IMG/VR virus record: IMGVR_UViG_3300028584_000286
Span: 5,320 to 69,319 of that record
Source: a virus
Strand: one strand, 5' to 3'
DNA: 64,000 nt
Positions 12,698-42,789 of this stretch are shown here, piece by piece. Positions within the stretch are counted from its first letter, which is position 1; each line of letters starts with the position of its first letter. A program made the translations under genes and the position numbers. Under the pieces are notes generated by a model. The model ran no database searches. It was not told the origin of the DNA and saw only the letters and a list, made by a program, of their open reading frames with translations.

Positions 12698-12727
12698 GGG
12701 AGGGCTATACTGCTTTTAGACCCTCCC
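12698..12727. terminator. GC-rich hairpin between ATPase and vWA genes
   Basis: GGGAGGG...CCCTCCC stem with a T run upstream. Confidence 0.4.
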
Positions 12728-12747
12728 TAAATCAAAAATCTTTATGT

Positions 12748-12763
12748 TATATTTGTACTGCAA
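12748..12763 (+). promoter_or_regulatory. Bacteroidota-type -7 promoter box
   Basis: TATATTTGTACTGCAA, identical to 20987-21002; matches TAnnTTTG. Confidence 0.65.
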
Positions 12764-12803
12764 ATAACACTATCTTTGAATAAATAAAAACGGACTAGAA
12801 CTG

Positions 12804-15035
12804 ATGGACACATTTTATAAAGAGTTACAGCAAAGTGATTGGCTAGGAAGAAATCCAAATGACTACACTTACAAAAAATCTGGTATATCTATCGGATGGG
12901 AGGACACCCTAACCAAAGGGGATGCGTTATCCAAATTCATACTTAAAGTAAATTCCCAAAATCTTGCAATAGATAGAAAAGTATTACTTACAAAACAAGC
13001 TTGTGGAAATATTCTATCAAGAATGAATGTTCACAAGCATAAAGCCAAAATAGTTTTCACAGACCAATTTTCAAGTTATCAAAAGGATAGTACAGTTTGT
13101 GTTACACTTGAACCTCTTTCTGGTAAAATACCATTCCCAACCTTTAATCACAGTCTTGACCCCATACTTGGGTTTGCAGTTCACGAAATTGCACATTTTC
13201 TTTACACAGACAAGCGTTACCAAGATTATCTAAAAAAGTTCAAAGGGAACGAAGCGAAGTTGAAAATGATGATTATGAATGTTTTGGAAGATGAGAGAAT
13301 TGAGCAGATAGTTGCAGGAACATTCAGAGGTTATACAGGTTATTTGGGCAAAGCTAAAGATTATTGTTTTGGCAAAAGATTTGCAGAAGAGAAGGCAAAA
13401 AGAAATGTGGACGACCAGCAAGATATTGTTCAATTAGCAGAAACATTTTTACACCTACTTCGTTATCCAAAAGCATTAGAGGAAAGTCTTGTAAATAAAT
13501 TTGAGCCACAGCTTCGAGATATTATGAGTGTTCTTACCCCATACCCAACAGATATTCCAGAGTTAGTTGAGTGTACTGAAAAAATCTACGCTATCTTTAA
13601 AGAAGATAATGATGAGGACGAGGGTGATGGAGATGGCGAGGATGGAGAAGGCGAAAGTGAGGGAGATGGTAATGGTAAAAGTGGTTCTGGAAAAGGCAAA
13701 GGAGATGGGTCTGGTGGTGGTAATTCCAATAATTCCAATAATTCCGAAGAAGAAAATGAGGATGGTTCTGATGATAGTAACTCTTCGGATGATGAAAAAG
13801 ATGGTGATAGTTCTGATGAAGATGGTTCAGATGATGGAGATAAAAAAGGAAATGGTAATGGTAATCCACAGAAGAGTGAAGAGGAACAAGAGGAAGAAAA
13901 AGATGGTGATAGTTCTGATGGAGATGATACCAAAGAAAATGCCGATGATAGTAACGGTAAAAAACCAAAAAAAGATATTGACAAATTACTTGATGCTTTC
14001 GCAGAAGCATTAATGTCGTCAGCACCCTCTACTGGTGGAGATGCAGAACAACTTGCAGAGATGCTCGGAATGAAAGGGAGGTATAATGTTTCAGAAGCCT
14101 TAAAAGAAATTTCAAATTACGAAAATGAGCAGATACTACCAACACAGTCGTTTGCACACATTTACCCAGACACCGAAAATCTACAAACCTCTCAAATGAG
14201 TGTTTACTTTAATGATGCAAAGAATTTAAAAAGCACCACAAACCACTATGATAGTGCGTTAAATGAAGTCAAGTCTTATTCAGCATCATTGAGAGCAAAA
14301 ATACAACAGTTGAATAGACATCAAGATATTACCTATAAAGGACTAACTGAAGGAGATTTTGATGATGGTATGTTGGTTGATGCAATAGTTGGTGCAAAGA
14401 ATATATACAAGCAAGACCATAAGGTTATGAATAGAGGTGCTTGTATTGGACTTCTTATTGATGAGAGTGGTTCTATGGGTTCCTCCTCTAGGTGGTATCA
14501 AGCTATGAAAATTGCAGTAATGTTTGAGAGAGCATTGGAGGGAGTTAATGGAGTTGATTTTTATTGCTATGGTCATACTACTGGGAATGATATAAGAAAC
14601 TCTACTTCTGGTGCTGATGCTACTTGGATTAATGTTTACTATGAGGGTAGAAAGGTTTCAGATAGAAAAGCACTTGGCAAAATACATAACCACAATACAA
14701 ATCGTGATGGACACGCAATACTTGAAGTGGTAGCAAGAATGAGAACTAAAGTAGCACAGAATATGCCAATTATACTATTTATGATTTCTGATGGTGAGCC
14801 TTCGGCTTCTGTTCCATCGGGCTATACTGGAATAACCTATACAAAAAAAGCGGTAAATGTAGTAGAGAAATACTCCAATGCAACTGTTTTGCACGTAGCC
14901 ATAGACAAAGGTATCCCCTCAAAAGATATGTTCAACCAATTTGTAGAATTTACAGATATGCAAACTCTAATAAGAGATATTGGTGGTATCTTAAAGAAAA
15001 TAATGTTAAAACAACAGTCTGCCAATGTTATTTAA
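12804..15035 (+). CDS. CobT-like vWA (MIDAS) protein with HExxH N-domain and acidic linker
   Basis: HEIAH, NVLEDERIE, long D/E/G/S linker, LIDESGSM MIDAS, TTG, ISDGEP. Confidence 0.88.
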   Translation: MDTFYKELQQSDWLGRNPNDYTYKKSGISIGWEDTLTKGDALSKFILKVNSQNLAIDRKVLLTKQACGNILSRMNVHKHKAKIVFTDQFSSYQKDSTVCVTLEPLSGKIPFPTFNHSLDPILGFAVHEIAHFLYTDKRYQDYLKKFKGNEAKLKMMIMNVLEDERIEQIVAGTFRGYTGYLGKAKDYCFGKRFAEEKAKRNVDDQQDIVQLAETFLHLLRYPKALEESLVNKFEPQLRDIMSVLTPYPTDIPELVECTEKIYAIFKEDNDEDEGDGDGEDGEGESEGDGNGKSGSGKGKGDGSGGGNSNNSNNSEEENEDGSDDSNSSDDEKDGDSSDEDGSDDGDKKGNGNGNPQKSEEEQEEEKDGDSSDGDDTKENADDSNGKKPKKDIDKLLDAFAEALMSSAPSTGGDAEQLAEMLGMKGRYNVSEALKEISNYENEQILPTQSFAHIYPDTENLQTSQMSVYFNDAKNLKSTTNHYDSALNEVKSYSASLRAKIQQLNRHQDITYKGLTEGDFDDGMLVDAIVGAKNIYKQDHKVMNRGACIGLLIDESGSMGSSSRWYQAMKIAVMFERALEGVNGVDFYCYGHTTGNDIRNSTSGADATWINVYYEGRKVSDRKALGKIHNHNTNRDGHAILEVVARMRTKVAQNMPIILFMISDGEPSASVPSGYTGITYTKKAVNVVEKYSNATVLHVAIDKGIPSKDMFNQFVEFTDMQTLIRDIGGILKKIMLKQQSANVI
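13794..13920 (+). repeat. 25-bp direct repeat in the acidic linker
   Basis: GAAAAAGATGGTGATAGTTCTGATG at 13794-13818 and 13896-13920. Confidence 0.85.
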
Positions 15036-35605: not shown

Positions 35606-36422
35606 ATAGATTATTTCAGACCTTAATTTTTAATATAGCTTTCATAGATTTACTAAATGGGGTTTGTACTTGAAAATTTGGCACATAAAAGAGGCATATA
35701 AAAAGAACTTCTTTGGTAGGTGGTCGGAATAAGATAATGTATAGACAATTCGGTAGATGGGAGATAAATGCTTCATTAAATTTTATAGCAATTAAGTGGA
35801 TAAAATTTCGGAAAAAATTCTCGGCAGAAAAGATATAGATGGGTAGGTATAGGAGATAGAATGTATAATGAATGATATACACTTGAGGATGGAGTAGAGA
35901 AGATAATTTTTTGGCAAAAGATTTTCGGCACAAAATAAAGAATAAAAAATCGGGCAGAAAGGAGTGGAATGATTAATACTAATCTAAATAATAATAAATA
36001 GACATCATACATATTCATTATTCTATTAAACACCGAGATAGTTCACATAAATCAATGGATATGCCTCTATAAACCTCTATAACTGGGAGAGTACTAACCC
36101 TTGATATTACGATTTTTGAAAAGGTTTTGTAGCATTTTGACCAAAATCTAGGTATTTTGTATTTAATTTGAGTGAAATTTAATTCAATAAACATAGGGGT
36201 TGAGAAATATTTGGTGTCGTTTTTTCCCCATACAGAGAGTACACAATCATAGATGTTATTTTGGGCGAAATTCCTTTTGAGATTTTCTATCGGTTTTACC
36301 GATTTAATTTGATTGAAATTTAATTATTTAATTTGACTAAAATTTAATACTTTTATGTTTTGATTATTCATTTAATTTTACTTAAATTTGACAAATAATA
36401 AAAACGATTAAAAACATATTTT
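35606..36422. other. ~0.8 kb non-coding region with degenerate repeats
   Basis: No credible ORF; AAwTTyyGGCA-AAAA-like units at 35673-35960 and TAATTTGAnT(G/A)AAATTTAA units at 36160-36350. Confidence 0.65.
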
Positions 36423-37700: not shown

Positions 37701-37751
37701 AAATATTTACTATATTTGACTTAAATTTAATAACTATTAATTATATACATT

Positions 37752-38576: not shown

Positions 38577-38600
38577 GTTTTGGTTGTTTATTTTGGTTGG

Positions 38601-38631
38601 AAAGCCTTTCATTAATTTGGAGGGCTTTTTT
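38601..38631 (+). terminator. intrinsic terminator
   Basis: AAAGCCTTTCA...TGGAGGGCTTT plus T run. Confidence 0.7.
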
Positions 38632-38714
38632 ACTTTTACAGATTTACATATTTATTATTTTGACTTTTTATAAAACGATTAAATTTGATTAAACTTTAAT
38701 AAACCATATAAAAC

Positions 38715-38830
38715 CATCATAAAACCATAAAACCTCCTTAAAAATGCCTTATTTGATTAAATTTGATTAAAATTTAATCCTTTGAAACCCTTGAAAAATA
38801 AGACTTTTTAAAATTTTATTAAATTTTATT
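38715..38830 (+). repeat. 116-bp perfect direct repeat, copy 1
   Basis: Identical to 40510-40625 (offset 1795); extends 12 bp further with one mismatch. Confidence 0.95.
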
Positions 38831-38840
38831 CAAATTTAAT

Positions 38841-38870
38841 TTTGATATATAAAAAATTAAATTACCTTTA
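38841..38870 (+). promoter_or_regulatory. near-consensus Bacteroidota promoter
   Basis: TTTG-N18-TACCTTTA directly after repeat copy 1. Confidence 0.55.
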
Positions 38871-39129
38871 CAAAAGATTTGATGACGGAATGACCACCAT
38901 AAGGCGAAAATTCCTACAAATTACGCACATTGAAATTATAGGGCAAAGGGCAATGGAAGGCAAAAAACGACCAATGCGAACCAATGAAGAAGGAAGGGCA
39001 AAACCGCCACAAATGAAGAAGGAACGCAAATAAAACGAAATGCCTCCGATTATTCAACAAAATGCACATTTTTGAGAGCGAACCATCACAAAGGAACGCC
39101 ACGACCAAAAAAGCAATGGAAACCCGAAC

Positions 39130-39145
39130 GGTCTTTGACATACTG
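39130..39145 (+). promoter_or_regulatory. boxA-like antitermination element
   Basis: GGTCTTTGACATACTG; second copy GTTATTTGACATATTG at 40713-40728; resembles Bacteroidota rrn boxA as recalled. Confidence 0.45.
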
Positions 39146-39263
39146 GAATATAGGAAACTAAAATCAACGACAATATTAATTTATTGTAGATTTGATGTTG
39201 CTTATTCTGACTATTGTTTGTGAAAACTAAAAAATTTATTTAAAATCTTTAAAATTTACAAAA

Positions 39264-40460
39264 ATGAAATCAGCAATTAAAAAATTCGTTACAAGTTTAG
39301 GTTTATCTACTGAAATGACAGCATTCTTATTAACTAACAAGTTATCTTTTACAGTTTGCAATGTTATAATTGAAAAAAATGGAACAGTATCATTTGATGC
39401 AGTTACAGACTTTTACAAAGTTGAAAAAACTACTTTAACGAAGGATGAGCAACCTGTTTGGGATTTGTACCACGATTTTAATAATACAAAAAACGGAGCA
39501 AATGTTCTAATGAGTGCTATTGAAACTGGCAATCCAATAACAGATGATAGTTACGATAACCAAGCGAAATTAACACCTTCAGCAGGAGCGTTGAAAACTA
39601 TGACTTTTGTACAATTTTGGGCTACTTTAGCCCAAGAGCAAAAAACAAAAGCGGTTGAAATTGGTAAAAATTGGTTACAAGCAAACCATATATTTAAAAC
39701 TTCTTTTGAGTTCTTTGCTATCAATGGCAAAGATGTAAATTTCAATGAAGGAGAATATTTATTAGGGTATGATGAAACTTATGGTACAAGATTAGCCACA
39801 AGAGTTTTACAATCAAGTCCAGGCGGTTTTGTTACTTGTGTTGATGGAGAAGGTTTATTCACTTTAGGGCATTCGTTTAGACCAGAATTGGTTGCAAAAG
39901 AAGCCGTAAATGCAAAAGCAATAGCAATTATTGACCCAATGTTTGAGGGGTTGAACGAAGAGAGTGCTTCAATGAAAGAAGCAAGTATCGAGAAAGCTAT
40001 GGACATTGCAGAACGAAGAGCAAAAGCATCAGCGAAAGCGTTTGATAGCATTAACGATGCCAAAATCACAACGAAAGGTTTATTGGAGCGTTACCAAGCA
40101 TTATTTGACAAAAACACTTTCACAAAAGAAGAAAGTGAGATTTTGACAGAAAAACTTGCAACCGCAAAGAAAAACATCGAAGATGGTGTGGAGGCAGTAG
40201 TGAAAGCAAACGCAGAAAAACAAAAAGAGTTTGACCGTTTGATGGGCTTGAAACTAACTTCAAAAGATGCTATTGCAAAAGCGGTTGGAGATGTGAATAA
40301 AGCCAAATTAGGCAAGGACTTAACCGAGCAGGTGAAAGCTAAAATCAAGGAAGCTACTGCAAATTTGACCCCTGCAAAGGAGGAGGCACAAGCCACCAAA
40401 AGCAAAGGAACCCGCAAAGATGCACATTCCACACCTGCACCAACAGAAGGACAACTTTAA
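39264..40460 (+). CDS. hypothetical protein, Ala/Lys-rich coiled-coil C-terminus
   Basis: 398 aa, alone in a unit bounded by the direct repeats. Confidence 0.85.
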   Translation: MKSAIKKFVTSLGLSTEMTAFLLTNKLSFTVCNVIIEKNGTVSFDAVTDFYKVEKTTLTKDEQPVWDLYHDFNNTKNGANVLMSAIETGNPITDDSYDNQAKLTPSAGALKTMTFVQFWATLAQEQKTKAVEIGKNWLQANHIFKTSFEFFAINGKDVNFNEGEYLLGYDETYGTRLATRVLQSSPGGFVTCVDGEGLFTLGHSFRPELVAKEAVNAKAIAIIDPMFEGLNEESASMKEASIEKAMDIAERRAKASAKAFDSINDAKITTKGLLERYQALFDKNTFTKEESEILTEKLATAKKNIEDGVEAVVKANAEKQKEFDRLMGLKLTSKDAIAKAVGDVNKAKLGKDLTEQVKAKIKEATANLTPAKEEAQATKSKGTRKDAHSTPAPTEGQL

Positions 40461-40469
40461 AACCAAAAT

Positions 40470-40494
40470 AAGCCTCTTAATCGAGGCTTTTTTT
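40470..40494 (+). terminator. intrinsic terminator
   Basis: AAGCCTC-ttaatc-GAGGCTT-TTTTT. Confidence 0.85.
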
Positions 40495-40509
40495 ATGCAA
40501 TGCTGCGAA

Positions 40510-40625
40510 CATCATAAAACCATAAAACCTCCTTAAAAATGCCTTATTTGATTAAATTTGATTAAAATTTAATCCTTTGAAACCCTTGAAAAATAAGACT
40601 TTTTAAAATTTTATTAAATTTTATT
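40510..40625 (+). repeat. 116-bp perfect direct repeat, copy 2
   Basis: Identical to 38715-38830. Confidence 0.95.
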
Positions 40626-40634
40626 GAAATTTAA

Positions 40635-40665
40635 TTTGCATTTTAAATATTTATTATTACATTTG
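40635..40665 (+). promoter_or_regulatory. consensus Bacteroidota primary-sigma promoter
   Basis: TTTG(40635-38)-N19-TACATTTG(40658-65). Confidence 0.8.
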
Positions 40666-40764
40666 AATATTGAAAGGAATGGAGGCAAAAAACCACCAAC
40701 GCACGATAGGATGTTATTTGACATATTGAAGGACTTAAAAATGTAACCAATAAAATTTTTTAAT

Positions 40765-41325
40765 ATGGAGGCGAACACAGCAACCAATAGACAACGTTAT
40801 GCTTTATTTTGCATAACAAAGAAAGATTACAGAACTGTTGTTATATCAAAGGAGGAGGCATCAAAGCTAATTTCGGAGGCACAACAACAAAGTGGGTATC
40901 AGAGGAAACCAAAAAATGACTTATTACACTTCTTAGAGAGCAAGGTTGATGTTCTGGTGCAAAGCATCACAAAAGAATTTCAGATTAGTTCTACTATATC
41001 GGATGACCCAATGACAACTAAAAAACCAAAAAGCTACTTATTTTTAGGTGGTGGGTGTGGATTTAGTTTTATTGAGTTTGATAAGAGAAGCAAAAAAGCC
41101 AAAAGCATTGTGGAAGAAGCTGGTAAGTTAAGGGATAAAATAAACCAAATGGTTGTTTCTTGTATTGATAAAAACTACTTGAAAAAACTTGAAGCGAGTG
41201 GAAACCCTATACAAGCCCATTTAGCACAAAATCTTTACTACAAATCTTCGTATGATAGCCTGGTTGTTCAGTATATGGATGAGCAAGGCATCAAAGGGGC
41301 TTGGGTGAGAACAATGTATGATTAA
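40765..41325 (+). CDS. hypothetical protein
   Basis: 186 aa; GGGCGF motif seen in phage early proteins. Confidence 0.8.
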   Translation: MEANTATNRQRYALFCITKKDYRTVVISKEEASKLISEAQQQSGYQRKPKNDLLHFLESKVDVLVQSITKEFQISSTISDDPMTTKKPKSYLFLGGGCGFSFIEFDKRSKKAKSIVEEAGKLRDKINQMVVSCIDKNYLKKLEASGNPIQAHLAQNLYYKSSYDSLVVQYMDEQGIKGAWVRTMYD

Positions 41326-41379: not shown

Positions 41380-41766
41380 ATGAAGTATTTATCGGATTAC
41401 TCCCAACAGGGAATTACAAACCTACTAAATGAACTTGGTGGGTTTTATGCTTTTTCGGATGACCAATTAAAGGAGCAACTGAAAGAGGGTGTGGAATATG
41501 TTAGTTTGGGAATGGGTTTAATTTGCCCAAAGGAGAACGCAAAAGCACTAAAAGAGGGATTGGTTGAAAACTTTAAAAAAGCAATGCAACAAGACCTAAA
41601 AGAAAACGGAAAGGTGGGAATTATCAAAAGAGAATTGTCCAACCATGAAGCGTATTATACTGGAGATATAAGCGACACTCACGGAGCGTTGATGGCTTAT
41701 GGAATTACAGAGGAGGAAATAATGGAGGTGTATGTTGAGGAAAGAAAAAACATAGAGATATGGTAG
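41380..41766 (+). CDS. hypothetical protein
   Basis: FYAFSDDQL, ELSNHEAYYTG motifs. Confidence 0.8.
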   Translation: MKYLSDYSQQGITNLLNELGGFYAFSDDQLKEQLKEGVEYVSLGMGLICPKENAKALKEGLVENFKKAMQQDLKENGKVGIIKRELSNHEAYYTGDISDTHGALMAYGITEEEIMEVYVEERKNIEIW

Positions 41767-42175: not shown

Positions 42176-42204
42176 TTTTGAAATGAAACCCTCCCCTACT
42201 TACA

Positions 42205-42325
42205 TATTTATTTTCAAAATTCTAAAAATCATAGTTAAGCTACACACACATATTTATTTCCAAATTTTTTAAAATCACAGTTAAGTAAATTTTGTATTTA
42301 TTTTCAAAATTCTAAAAATCATAGT
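42205..42325 (+). repeat. three 31-bp direct repeats
   Basis: TATTTATTTTCAAAATTCTAAAAATCATAGT at 42205 and 42295 (identical), variant at 42251. Confidence 0.9.
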
Positions 42326-42461
42326 GCTATAAATTCAGAATAAATTCAAAAATTTGCTGAAATTTTGGCAGGAGCAGGATAAATCGCAGTGCAGTTGAGT
42401 GGTTACTAAATTTCAATGAAATTAAATAAAAACGCAGTACATCGACATAAAATATAATTAC

Positions 42462-42480
42462 TAAATTTGATTAAAATTAA
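42462..42480 (+). promoter_or_regulatory. TAAATTTGATTAAAATTAA motif copy
   Basis: Upstream of ATG 42502. Confidence 0.7.
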
Positions 42481-42501
42481 ATAATATAAATAACTATAAT
42501 A

Positions 42502-42789
42502 ATGGCAACAGTTGAGAACCTACAAAAGTTTAATCTTATAGAAGTACTAGAACGCAGTTTGGACAAAGAACGCATTTTGGCTGGAATAGAGAGAATGGAG
42601 TTTATAACAGAACATCCTAAATTCAAGGTAGGCGAAATTATAGAATTTACTGGTGGTTTTAGAAATGACATTCGGTTCACAAGTAAGATAACTGGGTTTG
42701 ACAAAGATGGTGGAATATATGTGGTATGGGATTGCTACTGGTATCCAATAAAAGATGATGAAATTAGACAAATTCATAAGGTGATCTAA
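42502..42789 (+). CDS. hypothetical protein, SH3/KOW-like
   Basis: FKVGEIIEF...KITG..DG.IYV.WD. Confidence 0.7.
   Translation: MATVENLQKFNLIEVLERSLDKERILAGIERMEFITEHPKFKVGEIIEFTGGFRNDIRFTSKITGFDKDGGIYVVWDCYWYPIKDDEIRQIHKVI

Follow-up and report, generated by a model that had tools for sequence, protein, structure and literature searches.

Two boxA-like sites and the host boxA

Two 16-nucleotide (nt) elements on the + strand of a 64-kb window (the whole stretch of DNA that was analyzed) of the 84.5-kb IMG/VR virus record IMGVR_UViG_3300028584_000286 (98% complete) were probably working copies of the boxA of Bacteroidota ribosomal RNA (rRNA) operons (rrn), placed in 5' untranslated RNA, where they would load the host NusB-S10 pair and protect the transcripts from Rho. 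Site 1, GGTCTTTGACATACTG (39130-39145), was located 118 nt before the ATG of a gene for a 398-amino acid (aa) protein, and site 2, GTTATTTGACATATTG (40713-40728), 36 nt before the ATG at 40765. Compared with the phylum consensus GTTCTTTGACATATTG, site 2 matched at 15/16 positions, with C4 replaced by A, and site 1 matched at 14/16, with one common variant base (T14C) and one unusual base (G at position 2). Site 2 was a well supported candidate for a working variant, and site 1 was plausible but weaker as a working boxA. All four strings that a first-pass annotation of this DNA had named on the + strand were found, namely the two sites and, upstream of them, AATGGAAGGCAAAAAACGACCAATGC (38952-38977) and AATGGAGGCAAAAAACCACCAACGC (40678-40702).

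The host boxA was derived afresh from 120 Bacteroidota genomic rrn loci, fetched by a Bacteroidota-specific 16S string. The sequence GTTC(A/T)TTGACATATTG was present in the 16S-23S spacer of 61 of the 84 loci read, mostly with 0-1 mismatch, and the form TTC(A/T)TTGACATATTG, which the first-pass annotation had given as the Bacteroidota boxA, was in this way found to be a real conserved element. Position 5 was A in Flavobacteriales and T in Sphingobacteriales and others, and the element started with GATC in Bacteroidales. A looser copy (e.g., GTTCATAGACATATTG) preceded the 16S gene by a median of 134 nt (range 80-284 nt). The block aligned with the boxA of Bacillus subtilis (AUGAUCUUUGAAA) and of Escherichia coli (UGCUCUUUAACA; both quoted in PMC13753749), and it was taken as the boxA of the phylum because of this alignment and because leader and spacer both contained it. 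Complete genomes had no more than a handful of copies of the 16-mer (e.g., 7 in a 6.5-Mb genome in which the reversed control was absent). The consensus with which the phage sites were compared was that of the whole phylum Bacteroidota.

In the 16S leaders of host loci L001-L120, Bacteroidota rrn promoters had TAtaTTTGCACCCGCTT in common, and a conserved ATATTGAATTGACAGCG block followed boxA in Flavobacteriales. Many host rrn operons had two tandem promoters, each followed by the GTTC(A/T)T... start of boxA.

Both strands of the whole 84.5-kb phage genome (169 kb of sequence in total) were scanned with a weight matrix for which the 61 host spacer sites were the only input. Site 2 ranked first (21.8 bits) and site 1 ranked second (19.4 bits), with the third site at 8.4 bits. 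In 200 null genomes (first-order Markov), the top site had a mean of 11.1 bits and a highest value of 19.6 bits, and the second best site never exceeded 14.8 bits. Genuine host 16S leaders scored at least 19.4 bits in 20 of 100 cases, so both phage sites were inside the natural range. A match to host boxA, which the first-pass annotation had proposed as a check, was found with the phylum consensus, at the two best sites of the phage genome.

Likeness to host rrn DNA was confined to about 22 nt (AACGgTCTTTGACATAcTGGAA vs. AACGTTCTTTGACATATTGGAA), and site 1 with its flanks matched host locus L095 at 20/22 positions. A captured rrn fragment was rejected, as similarity did not extend further than about 3 nt beyond the element on either side, which pointed to a short signal and not to a captured piece of an rRNA operon. 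The sequence TTTGACATAYTG was found exactly twice in the window, at the two sites alone, and was not enriched there with 2 mismatches (20 vs. 21.4 expected). Aligned leader against leader, the boxA pair scored 9.5, which was reached by 68 of 150 shuffles (not significant); the significance of the pair came from the independent match to host boxA and not from the alignment between leaders.

Promoters and leaders

The sites belonged to two transcription units built alike, each with a 128-nt repeat, a promoter at the repeat end, a leader and a gene. The two direct repeat copies (38715-38843 and 40510-40638, + strand) had one mismatch between them, and copy 1 was an upstream promoter module with a recurrent TTGATTAAATTTGATTAAAATTTAAT box. 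Predicted promoter P1 (38841-38870, + strand) had a -33 TTTG (38841-38844), 18 nt and a -7 TAccTTTA (38863-38870), and predicted promoter P2 (40635-40665, + strand) had a -33 TTTG (40635-40638), 19 nt and a -7 TAcaTTTG (40658-40665). Both were of the Bacteroidota type (TTTG/TAnnTTTG), at the 3' end of the repeat, and P2 was a perfect match to the phylum promoter consensus. The -7 box of P1 read TACATTTG (38866 C>A, 38870 A>G) in an approximately 89%-identical relative of leader 1, a contig from DNA sequencing runs. Promoters and transcript starts are predictions throughout. Both sites were intergenic and on the sense strand, 47 nt (site 2) and 259 nt (site 1) after consensus -7 boxes.

Leader 1, of about 385 nt, was poor in T and relatively rich in C; its long body (38877-39150, + strand; A 43, C 21, G 21 and T 15%) was unstructured, and leader 1 held no open reading frame (ORF) conserved in comparison with the relative. 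Long untranslated C-rich RNA is the kind of RNA on which Rho acts. The action of Rho on untranslated RNA of the leader-1 kind has been reviewed (PMC12360218). Folding of both leaders was no better than that of shuffled sequences (z = +0.37 and +1.0), and the boxA-like sites were mostly unpaired in the centroid structures, in an accessible, single-stranded context. Past the 128-nt repeat the leaders were unalignable except for two islands, though the 128 nt upstream were near-identical.

It was very unlikely that the 16-mer served another purpose, be it a leader-trailer processing helix, an RNase site, a DNA-level protein site or an alternative promoter (TTGACA). The conserved block of 16 nt exceeded the 11-12 nt of the E. 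coli boxA, and TTGACA-18 nt-TAAAAT was present at 39135-39164, both in agreement with such a purpose. No partner strand was found downstream of either gene, however, since the best duplexes (-20.2 and -18.8 kcal/mol) did not surpass those formed by shuffled queries (-20.3 and -21.2 kcal/mol on average), and host 16S-leader and 23S-spacer copies shared the whole block though they would pair with different trailers. The main sigma factor of the phylum does not use TTGACA/TATAAT. A sigma-70-type promoter through TTGACA (39135-39164) was rejected, being at site 1 alone and not of the promoter type of the phylum; a sigma-70-like -10 box was missing at site 2.

Small ORFs in the leaders (26 and 47 aa from 38953 and 38890; 16 aa from 40679) were rejected as conserved genes because of a 1-nt indel between the copies, and of the loss of the ATG and a further 1-nt deletion in the relative. 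The 16-codon upstream ORF of leader 2 (40679-40729) began in the motif shared by the two leaders and had its TGA stop inside site 2.

In E. coli suhB, NusB-S10 bound near the start codon lowers translation, which leads to Rho termination (PMC5725501). The phage sites might also bind Nus factors and act negatively in this manner, so that expression would be tied to the state of free Nus factors or ribosome synthesis in the host, a reading that was considered improbable. Site 2, at 36 nt before its ATG, was inside the 50-nt window for suhB-type sites (PMC5725501; PMC12360218), and the 16-codon ORF ending inside it could couple translation to site access. But site 1 was 118 nt from its ATG, the ORF was not conserved between leaders, the copy-1 ATG was lost in the relative, and in other phages the 16-mers mostly headed tRNA genes, where translational repression is meaningless.

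The upstream motif

Each boxA-like site was preceded by a second conserved island, which is not needed for the boxA model. Copy 1 of this motif, AAAGGGCAATGGAAGGCAAAAAACGACCAATGC (38945-38977, + strand), was at about +69 from the predicted start, and copy 2, AAAGGAATGGAGGCAAAAAACCACCAACGC (40673-40702, + strand), began about at the predicted transcript start. The motif was present only in the two leaders in the whole 84.5-kb genome, and the local alignment of both copies scored 17.5, compared with 9.4 ± 1.3 for shuffled sequences (maximum 14.5-15.5). The motif pattern and the promoter-module pattern had no match in IMG/VR. A boxB-like hairpin in the motif was rejected by its weak stem (at best 3+2 bp, five pairs with a mismatch; not stable), by its non-conservation between copies, whose differences were not compensatory, and by its break in the approximately 89% relative, where the 26 nt of the motif differed by 3 substitutions and 1 deletion, no better than background. 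The distance from motif to boxA was 10 nt in leader 2 and 152 nt in leader 1, a 15-fold difference. The motif (ATGGAGGCAAAAAAC...) resembled the opening codons of the gene at 40765 (ATGGAGGC..., ATGGAGGCGAACAC...; 40765-40800), and part of the likeness may therefore be a relic of cassette origin.

The first-pass annotation had drawn a parallel to lambda nut sites. The phage leaders and lambda nutL and nutR (boxA, spacer, boxB, N and Nus factors) had in common that an early promoter was followed by a boxA slightly off consensus and by a second island. They differed in that the phage island was before boxA, at a variable distance, with no conserved hairpin and with no N-like protein found. Neighboring ORFs gave no Pfam or PHROG match suggesting an N-like protein, and the small basic ORFs of leader 1 were not conserved. 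The parallel was not upheld, as there was no stable or conserved hairpin, the spacing differed between leaders, terminators were not enriched downstream, and searches of the phage revealed no N-like, NusG-like or sigma protein; the phage leaders lacked the defining features of a nut site. A two-part site in the manner of nut, with a suboptimal boxA and the motif bound by an unrecognized N-like protein, so as to form a phage-specific anti-termination complex that would override intrinsic terminators too, was given little credence. It agreed with a motif significantly shared, confined to the two leaders and on the same side of boxA in both, with both boxA copies being slightly off consensus, as is the boxA of lambda, and with many neighboring small genes without known family. 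It disagreed with a motif without stable hairpin or compensatory change, with the broken stem in the relative, with the 10 vs. 152 nt spacing, with the motif not being found in IMG/VR, with no candidate protein being identified, and with the presence of the same boxA variant without the motif in other phages.

The 16-mer in other Bacteroidota phages

The canonical 16-mer, GTTC[AT]TTGACATATTG, was present in at least 115 IMG/VR contigs (at least 115 copies). Among the matches listed, 65 were outside ORFs (of at least 70 aa, here and below), 42 had a same-strand tRNA gene up to 300 nt downstream, often at 10-15 nt, and none was rRNA contamination. The reversed control was found in 40 contigs (40 copies, the complete set), with 1 copy outside ORFs and 0 near tRNA genes, and the ORFs over its matches were strand-balanced (26 to 22).

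The site-2 string GTTATTTGACATATTG was present in 107 other IMG/VR contigs (108 copies), with 65 copies outside ORFs and 51 with a same-strand tRNA gene up to 100 nt downstream; about half of the copies were 9-15 nt before tRNA genes. Two further strings together matched at least 119 contigs, and the counts for them are those among the matches listed. The first, GTTCTTTGACATACTG (T14C alone), had 93 copies, 55 of them outside ORFs and 23 up to 100 nt from a tRNA gene, so that the T14C change of site 1 was common in functional-looking contexts. The second was the exact site-1 string, GGTCTTTGACATACTG, with 33 copies, 4 outside ORFs and 0 near tRNA genes.

Across about 800 sampled Bacteroidota genomes (G001-G778), the site-2 string was found once (L502), and this copy was in a coding-like stretch; the rrn operons had none. 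It was tentatively considered, as an unlikely reading, that the C4-to-A string is a boxA allele of the phages' own, with altered affinity or suited to a phage-modified complex, maybe together with the upstream motif. If true, phages would tune the host anti-termination machinery and not merely copy its signal, and the window would be a case of such tuning in mRNA leaders.

Several results weighed against the two sites being working copies of host boxA. Site 2 replaced C4. Of the host spacer sites, 96% had C at this position, and in E. coli suhB a double mutation at this and one other position inactivates boxA (PMC5725501). Site 1 was about 254 nt from the predicted start, which is far for a loading signal; its exact string, with G at position 2, was chance-like in other phages; and a second -7-like box, TAGATTTG (39187-39194), downstream of it could start the mRNA there. 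The two sites were paralogous, and so were not two independent events. Terminators were not enriched downstream: between 35.5 and 50.5 kb there were 9 terminator-like sites (6.8 ± 2.6 expected), and the many terminators and hairpins that the first-pass annotation had placed downstream were not borne out.

It was unlikely that the elements were functionless leftovers of the duplication from which the two promoter cassettes arose, with a boxA likeness due to chance in an AT-rich genome. Their paralogy agreed with this, and so did the non-significant alignment of the boxA pair between leaders, the departure of each site from the consensus at a well-conserved position, and the chance-like occurrence of the exact site-1 string elsewhere. 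Yet the sites were the top two matches to an independent host matrix in 169 kb, beyond 200 null genomes, the islands persisted while the surrounding leader diverged beyond alignment, and site 2 was a variant strongly non-random in other phages.

The 16-mer and its two one-base variants were found in several hundred viral contigs (loci L121-L235 and L276-L501), mostly in non-coding stretches; very often, the element was separated by 9-15 nt from the gene that opened a large tRNA array (with as many as 26 tRNAs). The presence of the 16-mer in non-coding stretches of hundreds of viral contigs suggests a general strategy by which untranslated phage RNA would be protected from Rho. As a host-phylum marker, the 16-mer could be of use for uncultured phages too. 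Literature searches for boxA in Bacteroidota and in phages of this phylum returned no paper.

Among L130:5097-5172, about 10 similar loci and positions 12706-12824 of Bacteroides phage BS-TP2 (PQ571275), a recurrent phage family had boxA directly after a DUF2693-FD RNA motif (RF02926, 75 bits), followed by about 975 nt without convincing ORF and then by a tRNA gene. A second phage family had about 1057 nt from boxA to the tRNA gene. Both families may represent boxA-led long non-coding RNAs.

Proposed mechanism and related systems

In lambda, T7 and the rRNA operons of E. coli, processive anti-termination through boxA and Nus factors is textbook knowledge. Bacteroidota have unusual promoters, little use of Shine-Dalgarno sequences and an atypical Rho, and to our knowledge anti-termination by boxA and Nus factors is essentially unstudied in this phylum. 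Beyond the presence of the sequences, we infer the following steps for the two sites as copies of host boxA. Host RNA polymerase would read the two paralogous phage transcription units, and boxA, upon emerging in the nascent RNA, would bind the host pair of NusB and S10 (NusE). Together with NusG and NusA, NusB-S10 would convert the elongating polymerase to an rrn-type, Rho-resistant, processive complex, and transcription would run to full length both across the approximately 385-nt untranslated leader 1 and across the short operon that follows leader 2. NusB (PF01029) was above the cut-off in 4/4 Bacteroidota genomes tested and in B. thetaiotaomicron. Homologues of sigma, NusG and NusB were not detected in the phage, and with no sigma or NusG homologue of its own the phage would depend on the host transcription machinery. 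The rrn-style boxA of the first-pass annotation, probably Nus-dependent, was supported at the level of sequence, by the comparison between phages and by a phylum that encodes NusB.

Compared with rrn boxA and its complex (NusA, NusB, NusE/S10, NusG, SuhB and S4), the phage sites had near-identical sequence and were likewise in untranslated single-stranded RNA behind strong host-type promoters. They differed in preceding protein-coding genes instead of rRNA, in having one or two off-consensus bases, and in having no boxB-like hairpin, boxC or leader-trailer helix. We know of no study of the Bacteroidota rrn anti-termination system at the bench.

The nearest published precedents were the early-leader boxA of T7 and lambda nut. 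In T7, a boxA anti-termination element has been described behind the early promoters A1-A3 of host RNA polymerase (Savalia et al., 2010, as cited in PMC3709561). In T7 and, as proposed, in the present phage, a lytic-type phage has a host boxA behind host-polymerase promoters, without N protein, as a means of anti-termination in its own transcription; they differ in host phylum and boxA consensus, and in that the T7 element was tested genetically whereas the phage sites are known from sequence. T7 changes over to an RNA polymerase of its own later on, but in the present phage neither a polymerase nor a sigma factor was detected, a search with the phage RNA polymerase profile (PF00940) being uninformative since its control gave no match.

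The boxA elements before arrays of tRNA or non-coding RNA genes in other Bacteroidota phages from IMG/VR had the same 16-mer on the transcribed strand, including the exact C4-to-A variant. They differed in being 9-15 nt before tRNA genes, whereas this phage was without tRNA genes and had the signal in mRNA leaders without leader-trailer helix. The placement of boxA in mRNA leaders, with a variant apparently typical of phages, is what makes the case notable. The two units make up a compact, testable system, in which the site comes in two natural variants and each unit has its own promoter and a reporter-sized gene. Such a system could show whether the Nus mechanism operates in Bacteroidota and how phages exploit it.

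Gene layout and other features

All long ORFs of the window were on the + strand. The phage proteins resembled those of Tenacibaculum and gut phages, and blastn against cultured phages gave no match. The window had no tRNA genes and no Rfam match at gathering scores, and the interval 38600-40800 had no Rfam match at E up to 1. An intrinsic terminator-like hairpin with a T run (38599-38636, + strand; 13-pair stem followed by a T tract) was at the end of the transcription unit preceding unit 1.

Unit 1 consisted of a single gene (39264-40460, + strand), that of the 398-aa protein of unknown function, and was closed by a clean intrinsic terminator, AAGCCTC-TTAAT-CGAGGCTT with a T run (40470-40496, + strand). 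The 398-aa protein had 9 relatives (53-76% identity) and no Pfam or PHROG family; its AlphaFold model was confident (pLDDT 86), yet had no PDB match at E ≤ 0.001. Related loci of the gene were not found in viral or metagenome contigs. Together with its leader and terminator, the gene made up a 1,795-bp cassette between the 128-nt repeats (window positions 38715-40638). For several relatives of the protein, the contig was 1.7-2.0 kb in length. Assembly breaks at equivalent repeats would give contigs of this size, and the repeat-gene-repeat layout may therefore be conserved.

Unit 2 started with the gene at 40765-41325 (+ strand), encoding 186 aa with no family, continued with the gene at 41380-41766 (DUF7659) and two small ORFs, and extended to about 42181. 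In a gene-free stretch after this operon, a direct repeat of about 38-46 nt (ACATATTTATTTTCAAAATTCTAAAAATCATAGTTAAG) was present three times in tandem (42202-42329).

A dispersed box of about 24 nt (TTGATTAAATTTGATTAAAATTTA and variants), which embedded the -7 element TAAATTTG, marked many intergenic regions (19271, 36158-36390, 37706-37730, 38675-38838, 40548-40633 and 42403-42484). It was probably a phage-specific class of extended promoter or operator. Other units had this box and short leaders without boxA (e.g., at 42462, with the ATG at 42502).

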